In this document: piece by piece, positions 1 to 25,921 of the stretch | How the letters are laid out: each line of letters opens with the position of its first letter | Position numbering within the stretch: the first letter of the stretch is position 1 | NCBI GenBank assembly: GCA_965223845.1 | Contig: CBDCXR010000004.1 | Coordinates: 4,480,001 to 4,544,000 of the forward strand | DNA length: 64,000 nt | Source: Planctomycetota bacterium | Lineage (GTDB): Bacteria > Planctomycetota > UBA8108 > SXIK01 | Reading direction: 5' to 3' | Translations under genes and position numbers: made by a program | Notes under the pieces: generated by a model | Database searches by the model: none | Seen by the model: the letters and a program-made list of their open reading frames with translations, nothing else | What the model was told of the DNA's origin: nothing

Positions 1-3000
1 CGCTCGTGAGATCGAAAAGGATGAGCTCGTCGCGCATGGTGGCTGCGAGCGTCTCGTCGGTCGGATGGAACGCCACGCGGGCTTGTGAGGGGGAAAAACG
101 TCCCGCCCCATCGGGCTGAAACTTGTGCTCGAGCGCGAGCGTCGACACCCGGTGCACCTCGACGTTCCTCAGGGAATCGATCGACGCGAGCCAGCGACCG
201 GTCGGGCTGAACGCGATGTCGACGACGAGGCCACGCCCGCCATCTCCCTTCGGAGCTTCGAGCTCGACCCCGGCGGGAAAGTTCCAGCGACGGAGCGAGT
301 AGTCGTTGCTTCCCGAGATCAGAAGAGATCCGTCTCGGGTGAGAGCGAGCGCGCGGACGACTTCGGTGTGCCCCGCGAGGCGCCGGAGTCGCTTCTTTGC
401 CTCGAGGTCCCAAACGGAGATGTCGTTTCCTTCCGCGCAAATGAAACGCCCGCTATCGGGCGCGAAGAGAACCGCGAGGGTCGGTCCCTCGAATCCCGGA
501 AGATCCTCGCGAATCTCCCGCGTGTTCACGTCGACGATCGTGATGGGAGTGTCGTCGTCTCCATGGCCGACGACGAGAGCATCGCCACTCGGAGAAAACG
601 CCAAACAGAACGGTCGCCCAGTGAGCTGGACGAGAGCGTCTTCCCCGGTTCGATCCGTGCTCCAGAGGCGGAGTTCGCCAGTGTCGTGACACGCTGAGGC
701 GAGGAGCTTCCCGTCCGGGCTGAACGAGAGTGCGTTGATGTACTCCGTGTGTCCCTCCAGCTCGTGCGTGATTTCGAGTGCATCGCCCGCCACCGAGCCG
801 AGGACCACGCCGCCGCTTACGCTGCTCGCCGCGAAACGCTCGCCGTCCGGGCTGAGGACGACTCGGCGTAAGCTGCCGATTCCGGGCGAGAGAGTCGACA
901 GCCTCTCGCCCGAGTTCACCTCGTAGCAAACGATGGCTCCGCTCGCCTTCGCGACAAAGATCGCGGAGCCGTCCGCCGTCATGACGACCGAGTTCGAGTC
1001 CGTGCTGTCGTATCGCCGGGTGAGGCCACCGCTATCGACGTCCCAGAGATAGGTCCCCGAGTCCGACACCGTCACGATGCTCTTCTCGTCCGGGGTGAAC
1101 GCGATCCCGATGATCTCTTCGTCGACGCCGGAGAGCGCTCGGAGCCAGAGGGGCGCGACCTGTGTCGATCCTTCTTCGATGAGGTTTCTTGCGGCGCGCC
1201 ATTCCTCGGAATCTGGGCGGAGAAGAACGGGATGCTCGGCCTCGATCTTCTCGTCCGCCTCGGCGCGTCCGTAGCCTTCGAAGCCGATCGCCTTCCCGGC
1301 GAAGAGCCGCGCGGCGAAATGCCGCTTCTCCTCGCGGAGAACGCGCGCGCGCTCGAGCCAGACCGTGCCCTGCTCGTGGCGTGCGAGTTCGGCGAGACGC
1401 GTTGCTTCGTCGCGTGCTTTCTCGGCGTCTCCCTGGGCCTTTTCCGCCGCCGTCGCGTTTTCTTCCGCCAATCGCGCGTTCTCGTCGGCGTTGCGCTTGA
1501 GGCCGAAGGCCCAGATCGCGAGCAAGATGGCGATCACCGCGAGAACGCTGACTCCGGCGCCGAACGCTCGGAGATTGCGCGCAGCCTTGGCTCGACTCTC
1601 GGCGAGCGCGTTCGCCTGGGCGAGCTCGCGTTCTCGCGCGGCTTCCTCCGCGCGCTCTCGAGCGACGGCTTCGGCCTGACTCTCGTCGAGGAAGTCCATC
1701 GTCTCCGTGAACTCGCCGCCGTACTGGTCGGCCCAGGCGGCGTTCGGTTTTTCCGTCTCGCGCCATGCACGGGAAATCTGGAGATCGGGGCCGCGAAAGA
1801 GGCCAGCCTTGCCGGCGATCCAGAGAGCCGCCGTGTCGGCGAGTCGCCGATAGATCCGCGCGGACTGTGCCTCTTCTTCGACCCAGCCGCGGAGGTGAGT
1901 CCAGACGCGCATGAGGCTCTCGTGCGAGAGATCGACGACGCTTCCCGGTTCGAGCGACTGCGCGGCCGCGGGCATGAGGAACGTAACGCCGGGTGCGCGG
2001 TAGGCGTCGACGATCGGGCGGACGTCTCCCTCGGGAACGCCGACGATCGCGGCGAGGTCGCGAAGGCGCGTCGGCCGGCGGATCCCGCGGTGGTCGAGGC
2101 CGCGTTCGGTGAGTGCTTTGAAAATGCGTGCGGCGATGTGTCGATCGGCGTCGCGCGGGAACGCGTCGTAGACCTCGTCGGCGTGGCGCGAGAGCGCTTC
2201 TTCCATTCCGCCGGAAGCTTCGTAGTGCGGAAGGTCAATCTCGTCGGCGTCGACGGTGTCGTCAGCTTCGTTCTGCGCCCGCGAACCGATCGTGCGTTCC
2301 CACTCGTCCCACGTGCGCATGAGCGCGTGCTGAAGAATCGGAAGCTGATCGGGATCGTCTCCGACTGCGTTCAAAAGATGCTGAACGAGGCGATTCGAGA
2401 TCGCCGCGCCGCCGACTCTCACCGGACCTTCGATGGCCGCGCGAAGCTGCGTGCGCTTAAGGCGCGGAATGAGAAACTCGCCCTTGTTGACCGCCTCGGC
2501 GAGGCCTCGCAGACGCGCGCAGTCGCCGAGGTAGTCGGAGCGCATCGTGAGAACGATGTAGATCGGACATGCATCCGAACGAGCCGCCTCGAGGAGCAGG
2601 TTGACGAAGGCTTGCGCCTGGTCGTGGCGGCCGGAGCCGCTGTCGCGGAACCGGAAGATCTCCTCGAACTGGTCGACGATGATCGCGAGCTTGACATCAG
2701 GTTCGAGCTCGGACTGCTGGCAAGCTTCGACGAGGCCGAGGCGGCTGTGCCGGAGGGTGGACGTGACGCGCGGGAGGGACTCGGCGTCGTCCGGGTCGTA
2801 AAGCTCGGCGCGACAGAGCGCTTTCGCGAGGTTGCCGATGGGATCGCCGCCGGGACGAAGGACGGCGATCTCCCAGTTCGAGCCCGCCTGGGTCATCGTG
2901 CCGCCGTGGAGCTCGGGAAGGAGCCCGGCGCGGACGAGCGAAGACTTGCCCGAACCGGACGCACCGACGACGGCGATGAAGCGGTGCTCGCGAAGCCGCG

Positions 3001-3106
3001 TGAGAAGCTCGGCGGACTGGTCTTCGCGTCCGAAGAAGAGGTAGTCTTCGTCGCTCTCGAATGGGCGGAGACCCGGGAAGGGATTCAGTCGTGAGGAATC
3101 GTTCAT
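1..3106 (-). CDS. nSTAND1-type P-loop NTPase + coiled coil + TM helix + WD40 repeats (partial, runs off window start)
   Basis: Absent from the ORF track because it has no stop in the window. Manual translation from ATG 3106 gives [30 protein letters not shown], Walker [10 protein letters not shown], Walker [36 protein letters not shown] and WD repeats such as [20 protein letters not shown] and [35 protein letters not shown] overlap with the upstream kinase stop. Paralog of 15268..21483. Confidence 0.9.
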
Positions 3107-5910
3107 GGCGAGTCCTCCGCATCGTTCGGGGCGGATCGACGTAAGGCTTCGACGAAGGGCGCGAGAACTCTCGGATCAAAAGCGCCTTCCTCGCGGACGA
3201 CCTCGGCGAGGCGCGTGCGGAAACGTTCCTTCCGGCGATCGAACGGCGGAGCGATGTAGACGAGCTGCTGAACGAGCTCGCGCGTGCGGCCGTAACCGGC
3301 GGCTTTGAGGAGTCCGCGAAGCTTGATGTCGACCCAGCCGTGACGCGCGGCGCCATAGAAGATGATCGCGGCGTCGCAGTCGACGAGGTTCTGGCGGTGC
3401 GTCTCGGCGGCTTCGGATTCTTCTGCGTCGAAGTCGGGGAGGCTCACTTCGAAACCCTGATCGAAGAGGAAGTCTTCGATCGGCTCGATCGCTTCGGCGT
3501 CTTTGACGTCGCAGATGAGGTAGACGCGCGCCGGTCCTTTCGCGCGCGAATCGTCGTTTGCGGGCGTCTCGTCGATCGCCCCGGGAGGCGGAGTGAGCTT
3601 TTCGAGAAGGAGCTCTTTCGCCGCCTCGATGTGACTTTCGACGAGCTCGGCGCCGAGGTGTTCGGCCGGATCGCGGCGGATTCGTTCGATCCACTTCTGC
3701 TGACGCGCATCGCGGACTTCGAGGTCGCCCGGAATCCAGATAAGGCGCTCGAGCCCGCGAGCGCGGGACGCCTCGGAGGCGAGGCGGTTCTGCACTTCGA
3801 GAATCGATTCGCTCGAGCCTTCGGGCACGACGCCGTGGAGGCTTCCGACGATGTGGACCGCGTAGTCGGCGCGTTCGAGATAGCTGCTGAGCACCGCTTC
3901 GAGCTCCGAGCTGACGAGCGGAAGCTGCTGGTCGGGGAGGACTCCGTGTCCGCTTGCGAGGAGCTCGCGGCGCATCGCGTCTCGTTCCGAGCTGAGATCG
4001 GATGTCGTCGTCGCGAGGTAAACGAGCTTTCCCGAATCCGGCGCGGCGAGATCGGTGGAGCTCGACGTGCTTTCGCGAAACGCGCGGAGAACCTGACTGA
4101 TTTCGCGCGCGAGATCGTAGACGCGAGCGTGGTAGCGTTCCGTTGCCGCGGCGTCGAAGGAGCCGCCGAGCTCGCGGACGCGTCCGGTCGCCGGGTCGAC
4201 GTCGAAGAACTCGAAGTCGATGAGGGAGCCGAAGAGCTCAGCGAGGCGGACCGGCATCTCGCGTTCGGCGACGGGGTGCTTCACCACCTTGAAAAGGCGC
4301 GACTTCGACTGCGGAGTTTGCTCATCGAGAGCGACGGCGTCCCAGAACGATTCGACGTGACGGCGGCAACCCGTCGACTTCACAAAGGGAGGCGAGAGTA
4401 CCGAGACGAGCGTTTTGACGCGCGGGAGCTGCTCGAGCAGCCCTTCGTCGATCGCGGCGGTCTCGGCCGGACCGGGCAGACGACAGATCTTCACGCGCTC
4501 GCCGGAAATCTGTTCGACGCGAATCTCGAGGTTCCGGTGAAGCTGCGCGATCCAGCCTTCCTTCTCGTTGGCGAGCGGCTGATCGTCGACGCGGGCGTAG
4601 CTGATGAAGACGTCGCTCTCGGTGAGGACTTCGGGCGTGATCGGTGGCGGCATTGCCTCGACCTCGATGGACGCACCGACTGCGGCAGGAAGAGCAGAGG
4701 TTTCGGTCGCGATCGACGCGGTCGCACCCGCGGGTGAGCCGGAAGCCTGGTCGCGCGCGAAGTTCTTGAGGTCGATGAGAAGATCGCGCGCCGATTGATA
4801 CCGTCGCTCGATATCCTTCTCGAGGAGCTTTCGAACGATGCGATCGAGCTCGGGAGGAACCTCGTAATTGAACCGAGCGATCGCGTCGGGCTGCGCGCGA
4901 AGAACCTTGTCGGCAACCTCGGCGTACGTGTCGCCGGCAAAAGGTAGACGAGTCGTGAGAAGCTGAAAGAAGACGCCGCCGAGCGAGAAGAGATCGCTCC
5001 GGTGATCGACGTCGCGACCGAGAACTTGCTCGGGACTCATAAAGGCGGGAGTGCCGAGAATCGTTCCGGGTTTGGTGACGAGGTTCTCCGCGGATTCCTC
5101 GCGACTCCCCGAAGGATCGACGTCGACTCGCTTCGCGAGACCGAAGTCGAGGATCTTCACCTGCCCGCGCTCGCTGAGGCTGATATTCGCGGGTTTGATG
5201 TCGCGGTGGACGATGCCCTTTGCGTGAGCGGCGTCGAGCGCGTCGGCGATTTGCGTCGCGACATCGAGAAACTCGTCGAGCGGGATCGGGCCGTCGGCGA
5301 TGCGCCGATCGAGACTCTGACCTTCGACGAGCTCCATCGCCATGAACGGCCGGCCATCCTCGCTCTCGCCGACCTCGAAGATCATGCAGACGTTCGGATG
5401 GCTGAGCGCCGAGGCGGCGCGGGCTTCGCGAAGGAAACGGCGTCGCTGCTCGGGATCGCCGGCGAGCTCGGCGATGAGGAACTTGAGCGCGACGGGTCGC
5501 TGAAGCCGGGCGTCGACGGCGAGGTAGACTTCGCCCATTCCGCCTCGGCCGAGGAGGCGTTCGAGGCGGTAGTGGGTGGAGGGGGTTGGGGCCGGGGGGT
5601 GGTTCGGGGGAGTAGGGTTCGGCGAGGCGGAGCTCGATGAGCGGGACGTGGGCGCGGACGCGGAGTCTTTAGGATTCGCGGGCGTAGCGTCCGGATCAGC
5701 GTCGGACGGAACGCCGCGGACGAGGGGAGCGGGCCGGGTTCGCTCGGTGTCGTCCGATTCGAAAGACCGGTCGTAGTCGAGGAGGGACTCGACTCGCGAG
5801 CGAACCTCGGGATCCGGGCAGCGTTCGAGTTCGGCCTGCTGCTCGGCGGGGGGTAGGCTCGCAAGCTCCTGGAAGAGAGCTTCGACTTTCTTTCTTTGGT
5901 CGGCGTTCAT
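3103..5910 (-). CDS. Ser/Thr protein kinase fused to TIR + DUF4062-like + third TIR-like domains
   Basis: Intact Hanks motifs [33 protein letters not shown]. Then [11 protein letters not shown] (TIR), [21 protein letters not shown] (DUF4062-like) and [10 protein letters not shown] (third alpha/beta domain). No TM helix seen. Confidence 0.9.
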
Positions 5911-7237: not shown

Positions 7238-7832
7238 TGTAGTGCTCCCCTCAGGTCAAGCCACCTGGTTGGATTGTTTTGACCGGAACTGAGCTGGACT
7301 GAGATAGCAGAGCGCCTGGTGAGGGCGCACCTCGTCGTACCAGCTGATCCACGATTGAACGGCGCGTCGCGCCTCCTCGAAGTCTTTGAAGTTGTGCTGC
7401 CAGGTGCACTCTTCTTTGAGGCTCCTGAAGGACCGCTCGATCATGCCGTTCTGCTCGGGCGTGTACGGCGTGATGTACTCCTGGCTGAGGTTGTACGTGC
7501 GGCAGGTCTCACGAAAGCGTCTGGACTGGAATGCGAGCCCGTTGTCGCTACGGAGGATTAGCCTCCGCCCTGACGGGCGGAGGGTTCCGAAGCGATTGAG
7601 GCAAGCCTCCTCGAGGGCTCGCTCGGCCTCGCGAGCCCTCGCTCTCAGCGAGAACTCGTACCCCACCACTTCGCGGCCGTGACAGTCGATGACTGCCGAG
7701 AGGTGAGCCCAGCCGTCGCGTCCGCAGGGGATGTGAGCGATGTCTACAGCCCAGCGAAGGTTGCTACGCTCGGAGCGACTCGTCCGTGTCTGAGCCCGCG
7801 GTCGCGGCGTTCGCGCACGCTGATTGTAAACG
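7238..7832 (-). mobile_element. IS3-family transposase orfB fragment (integrase core) with one terminal IR, 5'-truncated
   Basis: RWAVDIAHI...SAVIDC...LRSDNG...PYTPEQNGMIERSFRSLKEEC...RPHQAL..LSP is a DDE rve core. The stop at 7256 is followed by an IS3-like end reading TGTAGTGCTCCCC on + from 7238. No orfA or second IR recognised. Confidence 0.85.
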
Positions 7833-8171: not shown

Positions 8172-9163
8172 TCAATCAAGAGATCGAAAACACAAACAGA
8201 CCCTCCCCGCAATCCCGCGCCACTCTTGGCGCTTCGGTCTCCGGATCCGCGCGCCGCTACGGACAGCCGCACCGCTCCCGACAGGAGCGGCTCGCACCGC
8301 TGAAGATGGAACACCCGCATAAGGTTTCGTCCCGGCCGGGAAGATCACATTCTTCACGCCGCGGCGGTACTCGAGGAGCGCCTCCCGGTATCGCGAGCGG
8401 AACCTGACCAGCGCCCGGATCTCCGCCAGCCGCGGACCCGGCCGTTTCGCCTGAATCGCCGGCGAGAGCTTCCATCGCTTTTCGTACGACCGGGGCGAAT
8501 CGGTTGGCTTCTGCGCGAGCGCCCGCTTCTCACCGAGAAATCCACGTCCCGACGCTTCGATCTCCGCCCGGCCTCGCGTTCTTCTACTGCCTCTTCCACC
8601 TCCCGCGGGAATTCCTCGTCACTTCGATTCGCGAAGCTCGCGGGCCGGACGATCTTGAGCGGCACGACGTCTGGCATCTTGCCGGAGAAGAACCAACCCG
8701 GTCTCTCCGCGAGGACGGTCTCTCCGAATTGGCTCGGCCGACTCCGCGCGCCCGGCCATTCCTTCGCTCGCGGAACGAGACCCGAGGACACGGGATTGCA
8801 GAACGTGTAGACGAGCTGCCGGAGCACGTCTTCGGCCTCGACCGCCCGCACACAGATCGTCTGCGAGCAGTCGAACATGCTGCCAAACCTCCCGCGAAGA
8901 GCGTTCATCGAACGCGTCAGAAGGAGGTGGAAACACTGGATAAACTCACAGATCCGCCCCTCCGGGTCCGTCGCAACCACGTGGTGATGGTTCGAGAGCG
9001 CGACGTACGCGTGAATCTCGATTCCGTTTTTCTCGGCGGCGTACGCGAGACAGTAGAGAAAGGCGCCGTTCACTTTTCGCTCAGGGCGCAGCAGGAACTG
9101 ACGCTGAGTGCACCGGCGCGTAATGAGATACGTCGCGCCCGGAGTTACACGTCGTGGCAACAT
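8172..9163 (-). pseudogene. REP-associated tyrosine transposase (RAYT/IS200-like Y1), frameshifted near 8565
   Basis: ATG 9163 with GAGGAG RBS; MLPRRVTPGATYLITRRCTQRQFLLRP, HUH motif SNHHHVV, YTFCNPVSSGLV. The conserved C-terminus (GFLGEK...VIFPAGT) continues in a different frame. The 3' end is approximate. Confidence 0.8.
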
Positions 9164-9609
9164 TCGCGTTCTCCTCGTTTGACAGGAGGCGGTGTGCCAT
9201 TCGGAGCTCGGTGGGGACGGGCAAGGCATTGGTATCATCGGGCGCCAGCCGCCGCCCGCAAGTTCGAATCGTTCGCGGTCTTTCTTCCCGGGTCCCAGTT
9301 GACCGCGAGTCCTTTCCGAACTTCGGTATGAACCGGCGCACGGTGAGTCGCCCGCAACCTGGTGCGAATTGAGCGAGCCGCCCCGACGCCCCCTGGCTCA
9401 AATCGCCGCCTGTCCGGTCGCCTTGCCCTCTCGTTGCTCCCGGAGGGAGCCTGCGTATTTTCGCCGGCGCGAGCCGCGGCTTCCCGACGACCACGAATCC
9501 GGAACGTGCCCAGCCGTATAGCCAAGGATCGAACGATCCCCCGAATCCATCGTGCACGCGACGAGGCACCGTTCAGATTCATTCGATGCCTGAATTCTGG
9601 CGAGGAGCC

Positions 9610-11460: not shown

Positions 11461-11528
11461 CGATGGATTTCCTTCTCGAAGCGCGGTTGTCGTTCGGGCC
11501 TGAACGCGATTTTGGGCGAGTCGACGAT

Positions 11529-11762
11529 TCACCACGGAATGAGCTCTCCCGGATAGCCGCAGCTCCTCAGAAGCTGAGCCAGGAACAAGGAGGCGTCCCG
11601 CTCGACCCAATCGGAAATTGCCAGGTCGACGAAGCCGAACACGACAGAGAGGACGCACCCGAAGAAAAGAAAGACGACGAGCAGCGGAGCCCCTGCTTCC
11701 TCTCGTCCTTGATCGCCGAATTGATTCTGCCCCACCGAATCGACGCGCTCTTCGCTTAGCAT
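11529..11762 (-). CDS. Small putative membrane protein (77 aa)
   Basis: ATG 11762 with GGAGGGAG RBS; one hydrophobic helix LLVVFLFFGCVLSVVFGFV; co-oriented upstream of the redoxin gene. No family recognised. Confidence 0.4.
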   Translation of the reverse strand: MLSEERVDSVGQNQFGDQGREEAGAPLLVVFLFFGCVLSVVFGFVDLAISDWVERDASLFLAQLLRSCGYPGELIPW

Positions 11763-11902
11763 GGGCGCTCCCTCCGTAACGGAAACTGTGTTCGAGGGGA
11801 CATCCGAATACGCGACGAGCACTCCGTCATTTTTTGGAGGAATCTCCCAACCACGCTTCTGGCAGCGAATTCTGATTGAGCCTCGCTAGCGAATTTCTTT
11901 TG

Positions 11903-12496
11903 ATGGCGTCCATGGAACCGGGCGACCGACAACACGATCCGGCGGATTCTTCGCGACTCTCCCAAACGATCGACGCCGCGACTCGCGGGGATCGTCGAGC
12001 GGCCGGCGAGCTCCTTCCGATCCTCTACGCGGAGCTGCGCGGTCTTGGCCGGGCGCTACTCAGCCGCAAACCGCCTGGTCAGACTTTGCAGGCGACGGCG
12101 CTCGTCCACGAGGCCTACGCGAGACTCGTTGGAACCGCCGACCCAGGCTGGAACGGCCGCGGTCATTTTTTCGGCGCCGCCGCCCGTGCGATGCGCGACA
12201 TCCTGGTGGAGGAGGCACGGCGAAAAGCGTCCCTCAAGAGAGGGGGCGGCCGCCGGAGAGTCGGTGCCGACCCGGACGAATTCGGCATCGAAGCGCCGTG
12301 CGAAGACGTACTCGCGCTCAATGACGCGATGGAGCGCCTCGAGAAAGATGACGCGCTCAAGGGGCGGATCGTCCTCCTCAAGTTCTTCACGGGCCTCTCG
12401 ATGCAGGAGATCGCCGACGATCTCGGTGTTTCGAAGGCGACGGTCGAGAGGGAATGGCGTTTCGCCCGCGCTTGGCTCCATCGAGAGCTCGAGTGA
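11903..12496 (+). CDS. ECF sigma factor, TIGR02999-like (kinase-associated type)
   Basis: AAGELLPILYAELRGL, QTLQATALVHEAY, HFFGAAARAMRDILVE, FFTGLSMQEIA..LGVSKATVEREWRFARAWL. Start is ATG 11903 or 11912. Confidence 0.92.
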   Translation: MASMEPGDRQHDPADSSRLSQTIDAATRGDRRAAGELLPILYAELRGLGRALLSRKPPGQTLQATALVHEAYARLVGTADPGWNGRGHFFGAAARAMRDILVEEARRKASLKRGGGRRRVGADPDEFGIEAPCEDVLALNDAMERLEKDDALKGRIVLLKFFTGLSMQEIADDLGVSKATVEREWRFARAWLHRELE

Positions 12497-12643
12497 ATCC
12501 CCTCGTTCGCCCGCTGTGTGGGCTCCGCCCCCGCGTCTTTTCGCTTTCTTGAGGGGCCCAGCGCCCGGAATTCGGATGGTCTCCGACGCTCTCAACCGTG
12601 GCGGGAATCGCCGCCGACGCAGGGTTCAGCTCGAGCCAAAGTC

Positions 12644-15271
12644 TTGAATCCCGAGATCAAACGAACCAGCCAAGACCTCTTCGACCGCGTTCTGAAGCAG
12701 CCTCCAAACGAACGCCGTTCGTACCTCGCCGCGAACTGCCCCGACGATGAGGTGCGAGCGGAGGTCGAGCGTCTACTCGCGATCGACGTCGAGCTAGGCG
12801 GCACAAAGTCGCTCGAAGCGAGTGACCCCGCTCCGAGCTCGACCGCCGCGACTCAGGAGTACGTGCGCGAGAAAGGCTCGATCATCGCTTCGCACTTCGA
12901 GATCGTCGAGCTCCTCGGTCGAGGAGCGATGGGTGAAGTGTATCTCGCGAGCGACCGTCGTTTGGAACGACGGATCGCCCTCAAGTTTCTAAGCGAGGCG
13001 CACGCTCGAGATCCTCGTCTGCGAGCTCGGTTTTTCGCCGAGGCACGAGCCGCATCGGCGCTCAATCATCCGAACGTTTGCATTCTCCACGAAGTCGGCG
13101 AGCTCGAAGACGGCAGTCCCTTTCTCGCTCTCGAATACCTCGAGGGAGGAGACCTCGAAGCAAGGCTCAGCGAGGGACGGGTGAGCCTTCGGGATGCGCT
13201 CGCCTGGTCGATGCAGCTCGCCGATGCGCTCGACGCCGCCCACTCCGTCGGACTCATTCACCGCGACATCAAGCCGTCGAACCTTCACATCACGCCGCGC
13301 GGACAGCTCAAGATTCTCGACTTCGGCTTGGCGAAACGATTCGAAGGGAAGGCGCTCGCGAGCGATGTTTCACTCCCCGGGTCGATCGTCGGCACACCAC
13401 TCTACATGAGTCCCGAGCAGGCGCTCGGCCATCCGCTCGACGCGCGGAGTGACCTCTTCAGCGCTGGCGTCGTCATGTACGAACTGCTCACGGGAGAGCG
13501 TCCGTTCTCGGGCGATACGTTCGCCGAAGTCGCCGTTCAGCTCGTCCACTTGGATCCAGAACCGGTTTCTCGGCGGAAACCCAAGGTCCCTCGCTCGGTC
13601 GAGCGCATCGTCGAAACCTGCATGGCGAAAAATCCCGAGGAGCGATACCCGTCCGCTCGAGATCTGCTCGTCGATTTGAAGCGCGTCTCGGACGGTGGCG
13701 ACCTGCGCGCTACGCCGTCTGAATTCGTCCCTTCGTTCGTCGACTCGAATGTCGAACAGACAACCGATCTCGGCGTCTCGGCGGATGCGTCGGGAACCGG
13801 CGAACCGCGCGGCGGCGATGTCTTCATCAGCTACGCCGCCGTCGACGATCACGCATTGCCGAACGACGCGCGCGGCTGGATTACCGGCTTTCATCGCAAC
13901 CTCGAAGTGCGCATCGAGCAACTCACCGGAGAACGAGTGCGCATTTGGCGGTCATCACTCGATTCGACCCGGGACGGAGAAGCGAGCGCGGAGGAGCTCG
14001 ATCGCGCGAGGACCGTGGTCTCGGTCGTGTCGCCCCCGTACATAAAGTCTCCGAGCTGCTGGGAGCCGGTCGTCCAGAGTCATGACGAGAGCGAGAACTC
14101 AGACGATTCGGCACGACTCTTCAAGGTCGTCAAGCGACCCGTGCCGGCGGCCGAAATTCCACCGCGCCTCCGTCGCATCTTTGAAGGCATCTCAGGTCAC
14201 GAATTCTTCGACATCGATCCTGCGACCGGCCGCGTACGCGAGTACACGGAGACCGGGGCGCAGACGGTCGCAGAGCGCTACCAGGAGCGCATCTACGATC
14301 TCGCCGAAGAGATTTCTTCGGCTCTCCGAGACGCGCGCGAGTCTCAGATCGCCAGCGCTTCCGAGTCGGGCAACCAGAAAACCGTCTATCTCGCAACGAC
14401 GACTTCGGATCTCCGCTCCGAGCGCGATCGCTTGCGGCGCGAGCTCGTCGCGCGCGGACATCTCGTCTTGCCGGATCGTCCGCTTCCTCTCATCGGCGCG
14501 GAGCTTCTCAGTGCGGTGCGGTTGTCCCTCGAACGGGCCGACTTTTCCGTGCACCCGGTTGGAAGTTATCTCGGAGTCGTTCCCGAAGGACTAGACGAAT
14601 CGGTCGCGGAGCTCGAAAACCGGCTCGCGGCCGAGCGTTCTCGACAAGCCGGGCTCGAGCGATTGATCTGGACTCCGGACGTACGAAAGATCGACGATTC
14701 GCGTCAGGCGAGCTGGGTGGAAAACTTGCGGGCTGATCCCCGGGAGCAGGAAGGTGCCGAGCTCGTCGAAGGAAGTTTCGAGGTTTTCCGCGGCGAGCTC
14801 GTCGATCTACTCACCGGCAAGCGACGTCAAACCGGCGCGGCCGGGAAGTCGACGGGCGCGCCGCCACAACTTTTTCTCCTCTGCGTTCCTGACGACGAGC
14901 GTGCCGTCGAGCCGATCGAGGACTTTTTCTTCGATCGAGGCGTCGAGGTCGTGCTCCCCGCGTTCGCTGACACTGAGCGCGATCAGGGTGAGCTTCACGT
15001 TCGTCGTCTCACCGAATGCGACGCGGTCCTCGTTTACTTCGGTGCCGCTGAGCGTCACTGGGTCGAGTTCATGCTGCGCGACGTCGCGAAGGCGGCCGGT
15101 TATCGAGACCGGGGCGCGATCGAGCATTGCGTCGTGTACGTCGCTCCGCCAATCGACCGTCGAAAAGAGCGGTTCCGGAGCCTCACGGCGGACGTCGTCC
15201 GTGCCGAAGGCGAATTTGATCCGAGCGCTTTGACCGAATTCGCCGAGCGACTCCGGGAGGGGAGGTCATGA
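12644..15271 (+). CDS. Ser/Thr protein kinase fused to TIR + DUF4062-like + third TIR-like domains (paralog of 3103..5910)
   Basis: LGRGAMGEVY, IALK, HRDIKPSN, DFGLAK, MSPEQ; DVFISYAAVDD; [22 protein letters not shown]; QLFLLC. Start TTG 12644 chosen by alignment to the paralog N-terminus; the ORF is open from 12518. Confidence 0.9.
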   Translation: MNPEIKRTSQDLFDRVLKQPPNERRSYLAANCPDDEVRAEVERLLAIDVELGGTKSLEASDPAPSSTAATQEYVREKGSIIASHFEIVELLGRGAMGEVYLASDRRLERRIALKFLSEAHARDPRLRARFFAEARAASALNHPNVCILHEVGELEDGSPFLALEYLEGGDLEARLSEGRVSLRDALAWSMQLADALDAAHSVGLIHRDIKPSNLHITPRGQLKILDFGLAKRFEGKALASDVSLPGSIVGTPLYMSPEQALGHPLDARSDLFSAGVVMYELLTGERPFSGDTFAEVAVQLVHLDPEPVSRRKPKVPRSVERIVETCMAKNPEERYPSARDLLVDLKRVSDGGDLRATPSEFVPSFVDSNVEQTTDLGVSADASGTGEPRGGDVFISYAAVDDHALPNDARGWITGFHRNLEVRIEQLTGERVRIWRSSLDSTRDGEASAEELDRARTVVSVVSPPYIKSPSCWEPVVQSHDESENSDDSARLFKVVKRPVPAAEIPPRLRRIFEGISGHEFFDIDPATGRVREYTETGAQTVAERYQERIYDLAEEISSALRDARESQIASASESGNQKTVYLATTTSDLRSERDRLRRELVARGHLVLPDRPLPLIGAELLSAVRLSLERADFSVHPVGSYLGVVPEGLDESVAELENRLAAERSRQAGLERLIWTPDVRKIDDSRQASWVENLRADPREQEGAELVEGSFEVFRGELVDLLTGKRRQTGAAGKSTGAPPQLFLLCVPDDERAVEPIEDFFFDRGVEVVLPAFADTERDQGELHVRRLTECDAVLVYFGAAERHWVEFMLRDVAKAAGYRDRGAIEHCVVYVAPPIDRRKERFRSLTADVVRAEGEFDPSALTEFAERLREGRS

Positions 15272-18200
15272 CGTCGCGCATGCCGAACCCCTACCCCGGT
15301 CTCCGTCCGTTCGATACGGAAGAAGACTATCTCTTCTTCGGCCGTGAAGAGCAGACGGCCGATCTGCTCGAGCTCCTCCGGTCGAATCGATTTCTCGCCG
15401 TCGTGGGTACGTCCGGGAGTGGCAAGTCTTCCTTGGTGCGCGCCGGCCTCATTCCCGGGCTCGTCAAGGGTTCGCTCGACGGGGCGAACACGCGCTGGGA
15501 GATCGCCGTCGCGCGTCCCGGTGGGAATCCCCTGCGGCGTCTCGCCGCGGGACTCTGCGAAGCCGGCCTCTTCGACTCGAGCGATGTCGAATCCGTTCCA
15601 CGCGTCGTCGCGACGCTCCGAAGGAGCACGCGGGGACTCATCGAAGCCGTTCGTCAATCCGGCCGCGCCGCCGATTCGAAGTTTCTCCTCGTCGTAGATC
15701 AATTCGAGGAGCTCTTTCGCTATGCGAGCGACGACGTAGAGGCTGGCGACGCCAGTCGAGCGTTCGTGAACTTGATTCTCGAAGGGGCGGCTCAAGCCGA
15801 GCTCCCGATCTACGTCGTCGTGACGATGAGATCGGATTACCTCGGCGACTGCGCTCGCATTCCCGGACTCGCCGAAGCGATCAACTCGGGAGAGTACCTC
15901 GTTCCACGCCTCGGGAGAGACCAGGTCCGCCGCGCGATCGAAGGACCGGCGCGAGTCGGAGGAGCCGGAGTTACGAAGCGCTTCGTTCAGCGCCTCCTCG
16001 GCGACCTCGGCGACGATTCGGATCAGCTTCCCGTTCTCCAGCACGCTCTCATGCGAGCGTGGGATGCACGAGGCGACGAAGAAGATCTCGATCTCGATCA
16101 CTACGGCGCGATCGGCGGATTGTCTCACGCGCTCTCTCAACACGCGGACGAAGTCTACGACGGGCTCGCGAGCGACGAACTTCGAAGTACGGCCGAGCGG
16201 ACCTTCAAGACTCTCACCGTGACCGAGAGCGGCGAGCGCGGTGTCCGGCGTCCGACTCGAGTGACTCGACTCGAAGCGGTCACTCGCGCGGAGCGCACAC
16301 AGGTTGAAGCGGTCGTCGAAGCGTTTCGCGCGCCCGGCGTCTCGTTCTTGATGCCCGGAGAAGCCACCCCGCTCGCCGACGACCCCGTGATCGACATCTC
16401 GCACGAGAGTCTGATGCGCGTTTGGACGCGGCTCCGGACGTGGGTCGGCGAGGAAGCGCAGTCCGCCGCGATCTACCGCCGCCTCTCGGAATCCGCTGCG
16501 CTTTGGCGAGAGGATCGTGCGGGGCTCTACCGTCACCCCGATCTCGAGGTCGCGCAGTCGTGGCGCCGGGAAGCGCGACCGAATCCGAGCTGGGCGAGTC
16601 TCTACGCACCCGGCTACGAAAATGCGATCGCGTTTCTGACGGAGAGCCAGGAGAACGCCGACGCGGAAGAGCTCGAGCGTGAACGAGCCCGAGAGCGCGA
16701 GCTCGCGCAGGCTCGTGAGCTCGCCGAAACGAAGTCGCGCGAAGCTGAAGCCGTCGCCCGGACCGCGCGCAACTTTCGGCGCTTCGCGATCGGACTTGCC
16801 GTGCTCGCCGTCGCCACGCTGGCGCTCGCGATCCAGGCACTACTCCTTTGGCGCGACGCCGAGGAGAGCCGGAAGCTCGTCTCCGAGAGCGAAGAGACGG
16901 CACGCCACGAACAGGGTGTCGCTTGGTTCGAGCAGGCGCAGCGACTTCGCGCGGAGGAGAGGCACTTCGCGGCCGAGCTCCTCGCGGCTCGGACCTTGGG
17001 CTTCGAAGGCGTCGACACGATCGAGGACGAACTGGGCGGAACCGGCGACCAGCGCATCGACCGATCGCTCCTCAGGCCCGACAGCGAGGAGGCGGATTCC
17101 GTCCGTGCGTTCTTGTCTGCGTCGATGCTCGACGAACCACTCTATCGCAGCCCACAAGTAGCGCCCCCGAATGCGCGATGCGTTTGCTGGACGCCCGATG
17201 GCAAGCTGGTTGTCGGAACCACGAGCGGCAGGGTCGCTCTCTACGATCCGGAAAGAGGAGAACGCGAAGGAGAGTTCGCCGCGCACGACACCGAGGTTTC
17301 GTTTGTCGGGCCGACGTCCGATGGGAGCGCGGTCGTCACGACAACGGTCCGAGCGGATACGATTCGCTGCCACGACCTCTCGACGGGGAACGAACGATGG
17401 AGTGTCGCCGGTCGCGGCCGGAGCTCCCACGCCGCGCTCTCGTCCGACCGATCCTTGCTCGTTGTCGCCGGATCGACCGGGGTAGTTCGAGTAGACACAA
17501 CGAATGGCGCCGTTTTGGGCGAGTCCGACGGTGGCGCCACAGGAGTCGCATTCTCTCCCGATGGTGAGCGTTACGCGGCACTCCACTCGGACGGCTGGCT
17601 CCGCGTCCGGACGCGCGAAGGGACCCTCGTCGCTTCGGCCATTCATGGCGCGGGAGTCACTCGTGGACTGGCGTTCTCTCCGGACGGCCGGCGGATCATC
17701 ACCGGAGCGCTCAATTCGTCTGCGACCATCGAGCCCGCCAAAGTTTGGGAGGTCTCGAACGACGGAGAGTTGCGGGTCGTCGACGAGTGGGACGTTCCGC
17801 ACAGCGAAGCTCGATCATCCAGTTGGTTCGGACTGAGCCGAATCGTTGCCGCGCGACCGTCGGGTGAAGACGTCGCCGTGTTCGGGGGGTCGGGCGGTCG
17901 ACTACAAATTCGTCGCATCGCCGATGGCACGCCCGTCGGCGTACTCGACGCTCACGGCCGGCTCATCGTCGACCTCGCCGTCGATCCGACCGGCCGGCGT
18001 CTCATTTCGGTAGCTCCCGGTGAGCCGATGCGACTCTGGGACTTGGTGGAGCTCCGCGAAATTTCGAAGCTCGGCGACGTCGAGATCGCTCGGTCGGTCG
18101 ATCACACGCGGGACGGTCGATTCGTCGCCTCGGCCCATGCGAACGGCGAGATCCGAGTGCTGCATTCGCGAACGGGTGCGGTCATCGCCAACCATCGCAC

Positions 18201-21200
18201 CGATGTCGCGCTCGATCTCATCCGTTTCTCCCCCGACGGCACTCGGCTCGCCGCGGGCGGTCGACGAGGGATTCGCGTTTTCGACGTGACGGACTCGATC
18301 CTGACTCAGCCCGATCCTCTGCCTGGTGAGACGGTCTCGCCCGCCGAGTTTAGCGAGCGCGCGCGGATCGAAGGGCTTCGGTTCGCCTGGAGTCCCGACG
18401 GAGATAAACTCGCCTACAACGGAACGTCGTTCGGCGTCTTTATCTGGGACGCGGAGAGTGGAGTGTCACGTCTCGTCGTCGACAGCAGTTCGGGGCGCTA
18501 CGTCGGCCTCGCGTTCACTCCGGATGGCAAGCAGCTCGTCGTCTCGTCGCTCGCGAAGACGGAGCTCTTCGAGATCGGGGGAACGAAGACGGCCGAGTGG
18601 GCCGAGATCGGCTCAAACGCGGGCCTCGTCTTCCAACCGGGTGGGGATCTCATCGCCAGCGTCGCTCGAGATCATCTGGCGATCTGGCGCCGTGCCGATC
18701 CACCCGTTGTCGTGGGGCGTCTCGACCATTCGGGAGCCGAGTATGACACGCGGCTAGAGTTCTCTCCGGACGGCCGATTCCTCGCGGTATCGGGTGGCGA
18801 CCGACTCGTGCGCGTCTACGATGTCCACCGTTTGACTCTGCTCGCGCTCCTCGAGGGTCACGCGGGAAACACACTCGACGCGAGCTTCGCGCCGGACGGA
18901 CGCACACTCGCTACGACGAGTCTCGACAATACGGTGCGCTACTGGAAACTCGGACACCACGTCGACCGAGACAGTCTCGTCGTCGGGGGAGTTCGCCATC
19001 GGAAGATCCAGTTCCTCGACGACAGCACGCTCGTCGCGTTCGGCGCGGAGAGCAAGGTCGCGATCGTCGATCGAAGGCTCGGGACGGTTCGCCGCGTCCT
19101 CGACGGCGCGCCCTATCAATCCGGAATTCGCTGCGCCGCTGGACCGGCAACCGAGTTCGGCGGACCGTTCATTTCGCTTAGTGCGCAAAGCCATACCGCT
19201 CTCTGGGATGTCGCGAGCGGTGAAATGATTCGGCGTTTCGCGAACGACTCGTCGTACAACACTCGCGCGACATTCGGACCGGAGAGCCGATGGCTTGCTG
19301 TGCTCCGCGGGCCGCGCCTCGATCACTTCGACATCTCGACTCGCCGGTTACGGAAGATCGGGAGCGGCGTCGATCTCGTCGACATCGCGGCGACCTCGGC
19401 GGGCGAGCTTCTCGCGCTCGGGATCGACGGAAGGGTTCGCGTCATCGATCCCACGACTGGAGAGGAGCGCGAGGTTTTCGGTTCTGTCTTAAGTGAGACG
19501 TCTCGAAACGTCGCCCATTCGCCTCGGGAATTCCATCTCTCGCGCGACGGCAGCACGCTCGCGATCCAGTTGCCGAGGTCCGTGTCGATTCTGAACATGA
19601 GGGAGAAGCGCGAAACGGCACGCTTCGACGTCGTCGGCCCCGGCGCGCAATTCTTCGATCTGGCGATCAACGAGGACGGCAGTCGATTGGCGGTGTGCGG
19701 TGGAGGGGTCGCGCGTCTCTGGTCTTCGTCGGGCGAGAAGATCCGTGAATACTCGCGGCCCGACTTCGACGACGATTTCGTACCGTACGGAGTGGATTTC
19801 AGCCCGGACGGGCGCTGGCTGGCCGGCGACAGCTTCGGCTCGACGATCGCACTTTGGTGGGTCGAGCCCGAGGAGCGGCGTCGTGACCGGCTCTCGCACC
19901 TACTCGAGAACTTTGCGCTCGACGGTCGGCGGATCGTGCCGCAGACGGTCTCGAAGGTGCTCTACGCCGATCCTCCTGTCAGGTCGCGCGCGCCCGAGCG
20001 CGATCCGGTCGCCGAAATGGAAAACCTCGTGCTCGCGGGTGGATTCGACGCCGCGGTGTCAGGAACGTCGCGCCTGTCGCCCGAGCTCCGCTCCCGGATC
20101 TCGCCGGCCATCGCTGACGCGATCTTTCATCGAGCGGGGGTTCTCAGTCGAAACGGGAGGACGGACGAAGTCGTCCGGATCGTGAGCGAGGCGCAGGAGC
20201 TCGTCGGGAACGAGAGCGAACAGTGGTATCTCCTCGAACAGCGCACGGCGGAAGCGATTTGCCGGGGCGGTCGGCTCGCGGAGGGGATCGATCGCTTCGA
20301 CGACGCCATCGGTCGAGCGATGGGAGCCGGGCTCGATTCGATCGCGCGACGTCTCGCGCGCGCGAGTGTTTCGGTACTCCTTGATCTGGAAGACGTCGAC
20401 GGCGCGAAAGATGCGTTCGAGAAGCTGCTCGCCCTGCCGAACTTCGTAGACGAAGGCCGGCGGGCAAACGAGATTCAAAGACACGCGCGCCTCGTCGTCC
20501 GCCAGGCGACGCGGGATTCAGAGACAGAGAGCACGAAGACCGATCGCGCGCTCGCGGCCGTCTTTGTCGACGTCGCGCTCGAAGCCGCGCGTCAGACGCC
20601 CCGGCTCGATACGTTGCCCGAGCTCTCAACGCTCGTCGAGCGAGCAAACGCCGGCCGAGAGCCCGTCGAGCTCGTATCCTCGAGCTCCTCGTGGAGAGTG
20701 TCGCCGGTAGATACGACGGTGGGCGCAGATTGGAACGCCTCCACCTTCGACGACAGTGCCTGGCCCAGCGTAAATCCGCCGATCTTGTTCTCGACTACGT
20801 CCGAACGCCCCGAGCTTCGCTCACCCGAAACGACACTCTTCGCCAGGGGCCGCTTTCAGGTTTCGCCCGGTGGATTGCCAGAGGGCTACGGACTCGCGAT
20901 CCAAAGCAAGTGTCTACCGGGCGCGAGAGTCTTCCTGAACGGCGTCGAGCTATTTCGGCACGGACTACCGGAGGGTGAGATCGATGCGACAACTCGCGCT
21001 CTCGACGGTGCGCACGGCCATGCGTGGCCACGGCGCGCGGACGCGCGACTCGCGGAGCCGCTACGTAAGGGGGAGAACGTCGTCGCGATCGAGTTGCATC
21101 GCAATGATGGCAGCGCATTGTTCTCGCTCGAGGTCGTCGCGCGCGTTACGCCGGCGTCGTATCTCGCGGCGGCGGACCGGAGTCGGGCTCTTGAGGTCGT

Positions 21201-21483
21201 CAGCGACGTTTTTCCGGCGAGCGTTCTCGAGCGGTTGGGGCCGCGGTTGCGTTTCGTTTTTGCTGACGACCCCGGCTCGCTAGGCGATGCGGGAGATGCG
21301 GGAGATGCGCAGGCGTGGCTCGAGCGGGCTCGGGTTCAGCGTGTGCTCGGGCGAAGTGAGCGGGCGCGGGGGGCGTATTCGCAGGCGGTGGAGGCGGCGG
21401 TTGTGGAGGGGGATGCGGATACGGAAGCGATCGCGCGAGGGGAGATGGAGGCGCTCGGGCTTCGGTTGCCGAAGAGTCCTTGA
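15268..21483 (+). CDS. nSTAND1 NTPase + coiled coil + TM + multi-propeller WD40 + helical/TPR-like region + beta-sandwich domain (2071 aa)
   Basis: NPYPGLRPF...FFGRE, Walker A GTSGSGKSS, Walker B LLVVDQFEELF, DQLPVLQHAL, ISHESL; TM FAIGLAVLAVATLALAIQALLLW; many FSPDG/GH..WD repeats; C-terminal W..FDDSAW...VFLNGVE...GENVVAIELH domain. ATGA overlap with the kinase stop. Confidence 0.92.
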   Translation: MTSRMPNPYPGLRPFDTEEDYLFFGREEQTADLLELLRSNRFLAVVGTSGSGKSSLVRAGLIPGLVKGSLDGANTRWEIAVARPGGNPLRRLAAGLCEAGLFDSSDVESVPRVVATLRRSTRGLIEAVRQSGRAADSKFLLVVDQFEELFRYASDDVEAGDASRAFVNLILEGAAQAELPIYVVVTMRSDYLGDCARIPGLAEAINSGEYLVPRLGRDQVRRAIEGPARVGGAGVTKRFVQRLLGDLGDDSDQLPVLQHALMRAWDARGDEEDLDLDHYGAIGGLSHALSQHADEVYDGLASDELRSTAERTFKTLTVTESGERGVRRPTRVTRLEAVTRAERTQVEAVVEAFRAPGVSFLMPGEATPLADDPVIDISHESLMRVWTRLRTWVGEEAQSAAIYRRLSESAALWREDRAGLYRHPDLEVAQSWRREARPNPSWASLYAPGYENAIAFLTESQENADAEELERERARERELAQARELAETKSREAEAVARTARNFRRFAIGLAVLAVATLALAIQALLLWRDAEESRKLVSESEETARHEQGVAWFEQAQRLRAEERHFAAELLAARTLGFEGVDTIEDELGGTGDQRIDRSLLRPDSEEADSVRAFLSASMLDEPLYRSPQVAPPNARCVCWTPDGKLVVGTTSGRVALYDPERGEREGEFAAHDTEVSFVGPTSDGSAVVTTTVRADTIRCHDLSTGNERWSVAGRGRSSHAALSSDRSLLVVAGSTGVVRVDTTNGAVLGESDGGATGVAFSPDGERYAALHSDGWLRVRTREGTLVASAIHGAGVTRGLAFSPDGRRIITGALNSSATIEPAKVWEVSNDGELRVVDEWDVPHSEARSSSWFGLSRIVAARPSGEDVAVFGGSGGRLQIRRIADGTPVGVLDAHGRLIVDLAVDPTGRRLISVAPGEPMRLWDLVELREISKLGDVEIARSVDHTRDGRFVASAHANGEIRVLHSRTGAVIANHRTDVALDLIRFSPDGTRLAAGGRRGIRVFDVTDSILTQPDPLPGETVSPAEFSERARIEGLRFAWSPDGDKLAYNGTSFGVFIWDAESGVSRLVVDSSSGRYVGLAFTPDGKQLVVSSLAKTELFEIGGTKTAEWAEIGSNAGLVFQPGGDLIASVARDHLAIWRRADPPVVVGRLDHSGAEYDTRLEFSPDGRFLAVSGGDRLVRVYDVHRLTLLALLEGHAGNTLDASFAPDGRTLATTSLDNTVRYWKLGHHVDRDSLVVGGVRHRKIQFLDDSTLVAFGAESKVAIVDRRLGTVRRVLDGAPYQSGIRCAAGPATEFGGPFISLSAQSHTALWDVASGEMIRRFANDSSYNTRATFGPESRWLAVLRGPRLDHFDISTRRLRKIGSGVDLVDIAATSAGELLALGIDGRVRVIDPTTGEEREVFGSVLSETSRNVAHSPREFHLSRDGSTLAIQLPRSVSILNMREKRETARFDVVGPGAQFFDLAINEDGSRLAVCGGGVARLWSSSGEKIREYSRPDFDDDFVPYGVDFSPDGRWLAGDSFGSTIALWWVEPEERRRDRLSHLLENFALDGRRIVPQTVSKVLYADPPVRSRAPERDPVAEMENLVLAGGFDAAVSGTSRLSPELRSRISPAIADAIFHRAGVLSRNGRTDEVVRIVSEAQELVGNESEQWYLLEQRTAEAICRGGRLAEGIDRFDDAIGRAMGAGLDSIARRLARASVSVLLDLEDVDGAKDAFEKLLALPNFVDEGRRANEIQRHARLVVRQATRDSETESTKTDRALAAVFVDVALEAARQTPRLDTLPELSTLVERANAGREPVELVSSSSSWRVSPVDTTVGADWNASTFDDSAWPSVNPPILFSTTSERPELRSPETTLFARGRFQVSPGGLPEGYGLAIQSKCLPGARVFLNGVELFRHGLPEGEIDATTRALDGAHGHAWPRRADARLAEPLRKGENVVAIELHRNDGSALFSLEVVARVTPASYLAAADRSRALEVVSDVFPASVLERLGPRLRFVFADDPGSLGDAGDAGDAQAWLERARVQRVLGRSERARGAYSQAVEAAVVEGDADTEAIARGEMEALGLRLPKSP

Positions 21484-25760: not shown

Positions 25761-25921
25761 CGGCTGATTCTTGAGCCCATCTCGAAGCGCCGGAACGAGC
25801 GATTCTCGATCCGACGCTAGCCCGGAGCGAGAATTCGGAAGAATTCACCCACGGGACCGCGGGAGAGGGACGGTACACTGCGGGAACACGGTTCTCATCC
25901 GCGTAGGGCGGGAGTTTCTCC

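Follow-up and report, generated by a model that had tools for sequence, protein, structure and literature searches.

We analysed a 64,000-nucleotide stretch of the 7.9 Mb genome of a Planctomycetota bacterium (hereafter the window; G000:C4:4480001-4544000), in which two gene pairs face away from each other, each consisting of a gene for a Ser/Thr kinase protein that continues into three TIR-like domains (kinase-TIRx3) and a gene for a large nSTAND1 receptor. The left kinase-TIRx3 gene (3103..5910, minus strand) encodes 935 amino acids with an N-terminal motif of sigma-coupled kinases (the sigma-kinase motif), the kinase domain (4795-5571), the TIR domain D1 (4063-4611) and the TIR-like domains D2 (3595-4026) and D3 (3133-3528). 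The left receptor gene (1..3106, minus strand) has its 5' 1,035 codons in the window, with the NTPase at approximately 1814-3082 and WD40 repeats in the rest, and a single transmembrane (TM) helix is predicted from hydropathy at 1499..1555 (residues 518-536). Extending the sequence leftward completed this receptor at 2,251 amino acids, its end lying 3,649 bases beyond the window edge. The right kinase-TIRx3 gene (12518..15271, plus strand) encodes 917 amino acids from the first GTG, with the kinase at 12896-13648 and TIRx3 at 13793-15268; the exact start within 12518-12644 is uncertain, and 12644 agrees better with homology than the first GTG at 12518. The right receptor gene (15268..21483, plus strand; 2,071 amino acids) encodes the NTPase (15289-16515), then WD40 repeats, a helical region and a beta-sandwich, without malectin, and a single TM helix is predicted by hydropathy at 16789..16845 (residues 508-526). 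A gene for an extracytoplasmic function (ECF) sigma factor of the TIGR02999/PF07638 type lies directly before the right pair (11876..12496, plus strand). PSCyt1/PSCyt2/PSD1 and DUF1501 genes in the genome, together with the closest homologues of the modules, agree with the assignment to Planctomycetota.

Whole-genome tblastn with the conserved parts identified a third module at G000:C4:1867619-1877121, consisting of genes at 1867619-1870282 (887 amino acids) and 1870279-1877121 (2,280 amino acids). In all three modules the stop of the first gene and the start of the second overlap by 4 nt. Open reading frames (ORFs), Pfam and BLASTP confirmed the positions and outward orientation of the window pairs given by a first-pass annotation of this DNA, which had also described two paralogous modules; the copies are true paralogues, and the genome-wide count is three. 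The window pairs were 45% (kinase proteins) and 41% (nSTAND1) identical by BLASTP, both with E = 0, and core identity was 59% between the left and third copies and 51% between either and the right copy. A fourth nSTAND1-like match in the genome was distant (28% identity) and was placed outside the module family.

Both window kinase-TIRx3 proteins matched Pkinase in Pfam (E 4.9e-47 left, 6.8e-47 right), and the VALK, HRD and DFG kinase motifs were intact in all three copies. TIR_2 matched below its cut-off of 28 bits (23.7 bits left, 19.8 right), and DUF4062 (PF13271) matched above its cut-off in the left copy (31.1 bits against 24.7), with no PF13271 match listed for the right copy. The 515 residues that follow the kinase were modelled with AlphaFold from 69 homologues; the model had a mean predicted local distance difference test score (pLDDT) of 89.4 and comprised three alpha/beta domains. 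The combination of kinase and TIR reported at first pass was thus present in both modules, with three TIR-like domains per protein rather than one. D1 (residues 7-192 of the modelled piece) has a TIR fold, matching RUN1 in VIA-align with Z 13.9 and a root-mean-square deviation of 2.7 over 146 aligned residues, and further matching SPARTA TIR-APAZ (Z 13.9), MyD88 (13.0) and SARM1 (12.9). D2 (208-352) matched the nucleoside-deoxyribosyltransferase-like (NDT-like) enzymes BcmB, Rcl and DNPH1 (Z 12.2-12.6) and D3 (371-504) matched DNPH1 (Z 12.1), both with VIA-align; whole-model Foldseek gave noisy multi-domain matches, of which the TIR matches alone were usable. The sequence profile of D2 matched the DUF4062 protein KpSwz with E 0.0047 in an alignment that stops short of KpSwz E97, and a single-sequence search of D2 against PDB sequences returned chance matches alone. 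Profile-profile alignment of D1 with D2 or D3 reached a probability of 0.06, and D2 and D3 matched each other weakly (E 0.0016). In the available parts of two preprints (bioRxiv 10.64898/2026.05.01.722283, 10.64898/2026.09.04.749371), DUF4062 is presented as a TIR-like NADase with a catalytic Glu that precedes NACHT-WD40 in human TEP1, NWD1 and NWD2. The N-terminus of TIRx3 is empty in most relatives, carries a kinase in some bacteria of the Planctomycetota-Verrucomicrobiota-Chlamydiota (PVC) group and a class III cyclase at three loci. Two kinase-TIRx3 proteins (L025:8987-11470, L030:2327-4003; L-numbers denote loci) begin with a CxxC...CxxC zinc-ribbon-like stretch in place of the sigma-kinase motif.

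The nSTAND1 family (PF20703) matched with 325.4 bits on the left and 338.6 bits on the right, against a cut-off of 27.1. The NTPase begins at residue 8-9 and the effector is encoded upstream, so that the protein falls outside the classical tripartite layout of soluble STAND proteins. Walker A and Walker B motifs (GASGSGKSS and VDQFEE in the left copy) were intact in all three copies, and G48, S50, G51, G53, K54 and S55 together with D145, Q146, F147, E148 and E149 were invariant in 64 sequences. WD40 families matched in both window receptors by Pfam, forming the C-terminal superstructure-forming repeats, and the three copies measured 2,071-2,280 amino acids. A malectin domain was detected at the C-terminus of the left (E 2.8e-15) and third (E 1.1e-19) copies and not in the right copy.

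A single strongly hydrophobic 19-mer was present 25-55 residues past the NTPase in 57/57 assessable nSTAND1 partners, and the TM helix noted at first pass was found by hydropathy in all copies. Lysine plus arginine averaged 5.2 in the 15 residues before this helix and 2.7 after it, being higher before in 51/60 proteins, equal in 7 and lower in 2, which agrees with a cytoplasmic NTPase and an outside sensor. The helix is usually followed by WD40 repeats and otherwise by Laminin_G_3, TPR, or TPR plus a murein-endopeptidase domain (Peptidase_M74); malectin, Laminin_G_3 and Peptidase_M74 are domains typical of the outside and support the same topology. The receptor is therefore predicted to be a type-II single-pass protein with NTPase and coiled coil in the cytoplasm and a sensor of 1,500-1,700 amino acids outside. 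An AlphaFold model of the C-terminal 421 amino acids of the left receptor, made from 6 sequences, had a mean pLDDT of 59.4 and was too poor for searching. The post-TM motif proposed at first pass was present in all three copies and proved limited to their sub-clade rather than family-wide.

The two-gene arrangement extended well beyond the host. A word-indexed search returned at least 615 relatives of TIRx3 at E <= 1e-5 and a full profile search returned 2,490 representative clusters at E <= 1e-30. The family spans five phyla: species-representative genomes yielded 79 loci in Planctomycetota, Verrucomicrobiota, Acidobacteriota, Bacteroidota and one SAR202 bin, and these 79 loci were scanned with local profiles. 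In 71/75 TIRx3 units with at least 600 bp of downstream sequence each, an nSTAND1 gene followed in the same orientation within 1 kb; of the four exceptions, two had the gene farther off, one had overlapping ORFs and one lacked it. PADLOC-DB v2 (2023 library) returned generic kinase-domain matches and P-loop scraps and held no model of either conserved part, and the stand-alone pair L017 matched 0 of its families. The pair of TIRx3 and single-pass nSTAND1 is a large undescribed family, no description of it having been found in the accessible part of the literature, where nSTAND1 itself is described in conflict systems (Kaur, Burroughs, Iyer, Aravind, eLife 2021, PMC8195603). Several loci from metagenome-assembled genomes (MAGs) have kinase-TIRx3 or nSTAND1 split into overlapping ORFs (L034:9027-10049/9998-11476; L030, L037, L038, L049, L045, L083), which could reflect frameshifts, assembly errors or decay. 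L034 and L055 lie on the same contig.

Complex prediction with NTPase residues 1-470 and the TIRx3 piece, both supplied as alignments, scored 0.74, 0.74 and 0.72 in three runs, with the best control at 0.26. The runs had at least 96% of contacts in common and the partner's pLDDT was at least 80. At the same mark, 116/157 solved complexes and 2/215 mismatched pairs passed in a benchmark that is only a rough guide here, as our own alignments were used. The predicted interface sets D3 and the end of D2 against NTPase residues 19-39, 64-77 and 218-250, and its D3 residues include the invariant W439 and the near-invariant K443. D3 is thus predicted to dock on the N-terminal face of the NTPase and, given this predicted docking and the near-universal adjacency of the genes, we treat the pair as one split receptor.

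The catalytic Glu of TIR domains corresponds to D1 position 98 in a WCxxE motif, the profile aligning the SxWCxxE of the family with TLR TIR domains, and the AlphaFold model placed it at the start of D1 helix C. The site holds H in the left copy, P in the right and Q in the third. In a 69-row alignment Glu was retained in 49/69 rows, comprising 35/36 unfused proteins, 12/30 kinase fusions and, among cyclase and other fusions, two with Glu beside one with Asp. A second sample of the 150 best representatives (clusters at most 50% identical to each other) retained it in 100/102 stand-alone forms, 9/19 kinase fusions and 26/29 other long forms. One stand-alone homologue with Glu (L075) comes from the cultured Olivibacter sitiensis DSM 17696. 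Mapped on the tree, the Glu state required four or more changes, all of them in rows that carry a kinase. At D2 position 287, the start of helix C in the DUF4062-like domain, Gln was present in 144/150 representatives and 68/69 aligned homologues; the right copy has Glu there, as few representatives do, and is unique in this among the 69 rows. The ancestral output of the family was probably TIR NADase activity.

The first-pass annotation had described a conserved core joined to a diverged sensor, and this was borne out when the nSTAND1 copies were compared in 100-column identity steps, identity being 40-80% up to approximately residue 665 and mostly 13-37% beyond. The NTPase was 50-80% identical, the coiled coil, TM helix and juxtamembrane region 40-56%, the following approximately 900 residues of WD40 repeats and helical region 13-37% and the C-terminal beta-sandwich 31-45%. 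The kinase proteins were 34-65% identical along their length, N-terminal and linker segments excepted. The ratio of nonsynonymous to synonymous substitution rates (dN/dS) between the window paralogues was uninformative as the proportion of synonymous differences (pS) was saturated at 0.56-0.78, and no window of any pair compared reached a dN/dS above 1. No highly conserved internal repeats were found in the WD40 DNA of the left receptor gene; the repeat in the right receptor gene is a 37-bp array with an 18-bp period (15932-15968), located in the NTPase part and not in the WD40 region. Near-orthologues elsewhere displayed the same gradient, with dN/dS between L011 and L034 rising from 0.03-0.08 in the NTPase to 0.21-0.34 in the sensor, so that sensors evolved 5-10x faster than the NTPase with dN/dS below 1. 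Between L029:4191-12323 and L031:6549-14681, the NTPase was 95% identical with a synonymous rate (dS) of 0.7-1.1, whereas the sensor was 35-72% identical with dS mostly saturated, a contrast that points to replacement of the sensor through recombination; divergence between L029 and L032 was uniform along the length. Sensor diversification as proposed at first pass is therefore supported by the near-orthologues, while the window copies' own dN/dS is unreadable.

The single ECF sigma factor reported at first pass was confirmed, with one gene at 11876-12496 and none upstream of the left module; neither the left nor the third module had a sigma gene or sigma remnant upstream (best E 0.29), and promoter words common to the three upstream regions were chance 8-10-mers only. 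Direct adjacency of ECF sigma and kinase without an anti-sigma factor was a feature of the right module alone, the sigma gene ending at 12496 and the kinase gene starting between 12518 and 12644. The host genome encodes 14 sigma factors of the TIGR02999 type, and for 9/14 a gene for a large Ser/Thr kinase with the same N-terminal helical motif begins less than 35 bases downstream (example sigma loci on G000:C4 are 2334492, 2500126, 3129310, 5147810, 6949220, 4254260, 436430 and 182739). No kinase gene follows either of the two nearest paralogues of the right sigma (62.5% and 58.8% identical), which lie at 6.40 and 2.97 Mb. A motif profile built from eight sigma-coupled kinases of the host genome, with the right copy excluded, matched 7/19 kinase-TIRx3 N-terminal extensions searched. 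The motif coincided with a sigma gene directly upstream in the right copy, L009 and L056 and with a sigma gene 2.5 kb upstream on the opposite strand in L022 and L024, and it occurred without a nearby sigma gene in the left (E 3e-11) and third (E 8e-9) copies. From their sequence, the left and third kinases look like sigma-coupled kinases without a neighbouring sigma. In the remaining 18 kinase fusions, all foreign, the kinase is preceded by under 25 residues, and these fell outside the motif search. Direct phosphorylation of ECF sigma factors by Hanks-type kinases is reported for EcfK/PknS and EcfP/PknT in the available part of PMC13147305, and phosphorylation of ECF43 members by such kinases in those of PMC13147305 and PMC7826278.

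The region between the two window modules measures approximately 6.6 kb rather than the 6.7 kb first given and is occupied by three genes or remnants. A C-terminal fragment of an IS3-family transposase (7256..7669, minus strand; 137 amino acids) covers model positions 247-369 of 369 and scores below the whole-protein cut-off. An ORF resembling transposases of the repetitive extragenic palindromic (REP)-associated tyrosine type (8354..9238, minus strand; 294 amino acids) scores 45.9 bits against a cut-off of 80 and has no Pfam match. Both lie between the modules and suggest a past rearrangement of the head-to-head pair. The third gene (9610..11658, minus strand, divergent from the sigma gene) encodes a 682-amino-acid protein with AhpC/redoxin, cytochrome-c-like and Cu2-monooxygenase-C-like domains. 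It is 57% identical to L022:6757-8862, which lies between sigma and kinase-TIRx3 in L022 and L024, and the window sigma is 61% identical to the L022 sigma. Since redoxin and sigma genes stand directly upstream of kinase-TIRx3 in L022/L024 too, the neighbourhood is conserved, and the redoxin gene may be a regulon member or a component of the system.

Genes for glycan degradation adjoin the modules on their 3' sides. The genome's only rhamnogalacturonan lyase of the RGL11 family above cut-off (22862..24997, minus strand) is convergent with the right receptor gene at a distance of 1.4 kb. The genome's only PF05426 alginate-lyase-family gene lies on the 3' side of the left module with one small gene between, and the third module is followed 50 bp downstream by a SASA esterase and then a sulfatase (coordinates listed jointly for the left and third modules, L002:5131-7659 and L001:15171-17743, plus strand). 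That each module adjoins a glycan-degrading gene is suggestive only. No known defence gene was found flanking the three modules. Elsewhere, a TonB-dependent receptor gene came next after the receptor gene in nine loci, in Acidobacteriota (L018, L019, L020, L070, L077, L017) and Bacteroidota (L074, L075, L079), at distances from a 3-bp overlap to 22 bp or, in L017, which has only a fragment of it, approximately 200 bp. These TonB-dependent receptors consist of a Plug and barrel with a TPR-like N-terminal extension. Several features point to envelope or glycan signals, namely the domains of lectin type, the genes for a lyase, an esterase and a sulfatase next to the modules, and the TonB-dependent receptors at other loci. 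In Bacteroidota L075, L076, L079 and L080 a gene for a TrkA_N-domain protein of approximately 650 amino acids directly precedes the TIRx3 gene. Beyond the RGL11 lyase, the window carries genes for an RNA 3'-terminal phosphate cyclase (24994-25923, minus strand) and a dockerin-bearing protein (25922-27544, plus strand).

The modules share the order of a TIR-like effector or adaptor, STAND NTPase and beta-propeller repeats with TIR/DUF4062-STAND-WD40 proteins (bacterial Avs and bNACHT-type; human TEP1, NWD1 and NWD2). Effector activation by oligomerisation would be expected alike, and the D2 domain of the modules matches DUF4062 and KpSwz. Unlike these proteins, the modules have a separate, translationally coupled effector with three TIR-like domains, an NTPase of the nSTAND1 family and a TM helix, and the window modules in addition lack the catalytic Glu and have an added kinase. 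The nSTAND1 conflict systems have the same NTPase family (325-339 bits to PF20703 here) but are described as cytoplasmic with effector-associated or death-like adaptor domains, and no mention of a TM form, a TIRx3 partner or a kinase/sigma link was found in the available part of PMC8195603. Receptor-like ParA systems (PCTM, TIR-ParA subtype iii; 10.64898/2026.10.19.760177), according to the accessible portion of that preprint, are likewise type-II single-pass proteins with a cytoplasmic NTPase, a variable outside sensor and an upstream effector gene; their NTPase is ParA and not STAND, and a kinase/sigma output was not found described in that portion. In pairs of ECF sigma and Hanks-type kinase (ECF43, ECF59-62; EcfK-PknS, EcfP-PknT), the sigma gene is followed by a Ser/Thr kinase gene without an anti-sigma factor, as in the right module, and Thr replaces the acidic DxxD of sigma region 2.2, where the window sigma (QATALVHEAY) reads QATA by eye against the QTTA consensus of PMC13147305. 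Known ECF-paired kinases have their own TM helix and sensor, whereas sensing in the window modules would pass through a separate STAND receptor and TIR-like docking domains.

Trans-envelope signalling through TonB-dependent transducers is typified by FecA-FecR-FecI. The nine foreign loci with a TonB-dependent receptor gene after the receptor, and the probable ECF sigma output in the window, resemble this arrangement, and the periplasmic domain of the single-pass receptor could by analogy read a TonB transporter. Unlike in FecA-FecR-FecI, no FecR domain is present, the N-terminal extension of the TonB-dependent receptors looks TPR-like and not STN-like, and no such receptor stands beside the window modules.

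We read the modules, with about even confidence, as split membrane-spanning STAND receptors whose NADase output has been shifted to a kinase and then to a sigma factor. The first gene would supply the cytoplasmic partner, made of one TIR domain and two NDT/DUF4062-like domains with, here, an intact Hanks-type kinase at the N-terminus, and its TIR-like domains would act mainly as a scaffold since Glu is often lost in kinase fusions and in all three copies. A ligand, for which a glycan or other signal from the envelope is the likeliest candidate, would be bound outside and lead to NTP-dependent oligomerisation inside, which would cluster the TIRx3-kinase partners and turn the kinase on. The kinase would then phosphorylate an ECF sigma factor, which for the right copy would be the adjacent one and for the left and third copies the same right-hand sigma or an orphan paralogue. 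Several observations weigh against this. In the available part of PMC8195603, nSTAND1 is described only in conflict systems, and the distribution in the sampled phylum is patchy (3/401 genomes positive, host included), as defence genes typically are. For the right copy, the loss of Glu rests on an ambiguous alignment in which the helix is shorter and a Glu stands one residue earlier. The association of Glu loss with kinase fusion involves few independent events, and an independent-pairs test of it had 4 pairs and no power. The sigma-linked relatives L009, L056, L022 and L024 retain Glu, so that loss of TIR catalysis is not tightly tied to a kinase output, and the near-invariant Gln of D2 stands at the position of a possible catalytic residue. 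The motif match was absent or the extension too short (under 25 residues) in 30/37 kinase fusions, and a sigma gene lay directly upstream in 2/29 foreign kinase fusions whose loci extend 800 bp or more upstream; a sigma output is accordingly a minority arrangement. The main alternative is a counter-invader system of the abortive-infection type, which we consider unlikely and yet serious given the family ancestry and patchy distribution. In that case the outward sensor would respond to damage of the envelope or to part of a phage or competitor, the NTPase would oligomerise, the kinase and/or TIR-like domains would arrest or kill the cell and the sigma would be incidental. Such a role fits the provenance of nSTAND1 and DUF4062 in conflict and defence (PMC8195603; 10.64898/2026.05.01.722283; 10.64898/2026.09.04.749371, as far as these are available), the catalytic Glu kept in unfused relatives, the fast-evolving sensors with one apparent swap, the several diverged copies per genome with head-to-head pairs in three genomes, and the insertion sequence (IS) remnants beside the modules; periplasmic invasion sensing is also proposed for the receptor-like ParA systems with an upstream effector gene, in the accessible portion of 10.64898/2026.10.19.760177. 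Against it stand the loss of the TIR Glu in all three copies, the absence of known defence genes beside the three modules, the sigma-coupling motif of the kinases, the conservation of sigma and redoxin genes with the module in L022/L024 and the TonB-dependent receptor gene next in nine loci, which suggests envelope signalling. The analogy with immune receptors drawn at first pass is reasonable, but the predicted location of the sensor is extracytoplasmic and the neighbours are glycan-degrading and not defence genes.

Within the signalling reading, two further proposals of the first-pass annotation, a sigma shared by both receptors and an old duplication, have alternatives of their own. The motif in the left and third kinases favours a sigma output, and a sigma shared by the modules is plausible, but the orphan sigma paralogues would be equally good partners. 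It is possible, if somewhat doubtful, that nothing converges on one sigma and that the left and third copies signal to distant sigmas of their own or to non-sigma substrates: the two orphan sigmas (62.5% and 58.8% identity) match the two orphan kinases in number, and most kinase-TIRx3 proteins elsewhere have neither motif nor sigma. The left module lies, however, 6.6 kb from the region's sole sigma, and no linkage of the orphan sigmas to any part of the system was found, redoxin paralogues having been looked for beside them without success. As to origin, a quick maximum-likelihood tree of TIRx3 plus NTPase (63 units, LG+G4) placed the three copies in one 12-row clade (Shimodaira-Hasegawa-like approximate likelihood ratio test, SH-aLRT, 93) along with two foreign subclades, its inner order unresolved. 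That the copies are separate acquisitions of family members already diverged, rather than products of duplication in this genome, appears somewhat unlikely; the free tree left the three ungrouped, the third copy clustering with foreign sequences instead (SH-aLRT 81), and did not separate Planctomycetota from Verrucomicrobiota. Constraining the three copies to monophyly cost 7 log-likelihood units and was not rejected by the approximately unbiased (AU) test (p = 0.24), so that, monophyly being neither recovered nor rejected, duplication within the lineage and separate acquisition are indistinguishable on the tree. The N-terminal motif, Glu loss, post-TM motif and beta-sandwich common to all three copies, and malectin in two, argue against separate acquisition. 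Distant modules also stand head to head in a Pirellulaceae MAG (L046:136-8228, minus strand, and 9014-21512, plus strand; 786 bp apart) and a Verrucomicrobia MAG (L052:3705-9587, minus strand, and 9998-14013, plus strand; 411 bp apart), and in both the partners belong to different subclades, which speaks for separate acquisition.

STAND and NLR-type receptors are usually viewed as sensing in the cytoplasm and responding by cell death or arrest, and this family, by its predicted topology, places the sensor outside the membrane. It also splits the effector off as a predicted docking protein, and one branch would swap NADase chemistry for a sigma-wired kinase. A bolder view, which we regard as quite unlikely, is that the host modules are a bacterial counterpart of Toll-like receptor logic, in which an outside propeller or lectin sensor, an oligomerising NTPase, a dead TIR adaptor-kinase and an ECF sigma would have arisen from a NADase-type TIR-STAND death module, giving a small repertoire with each member beside a different glycan-degrading gene. 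The forms observed, from stand-alone TIRx3 with Glu through cyclase fusions to kinase fusions with and without Glu, may represent a natural series from immune death switch to signalling, and the modules would provide the numerous orphan ECF-kinase pairs of Planctomycetota with a concrete source of input.

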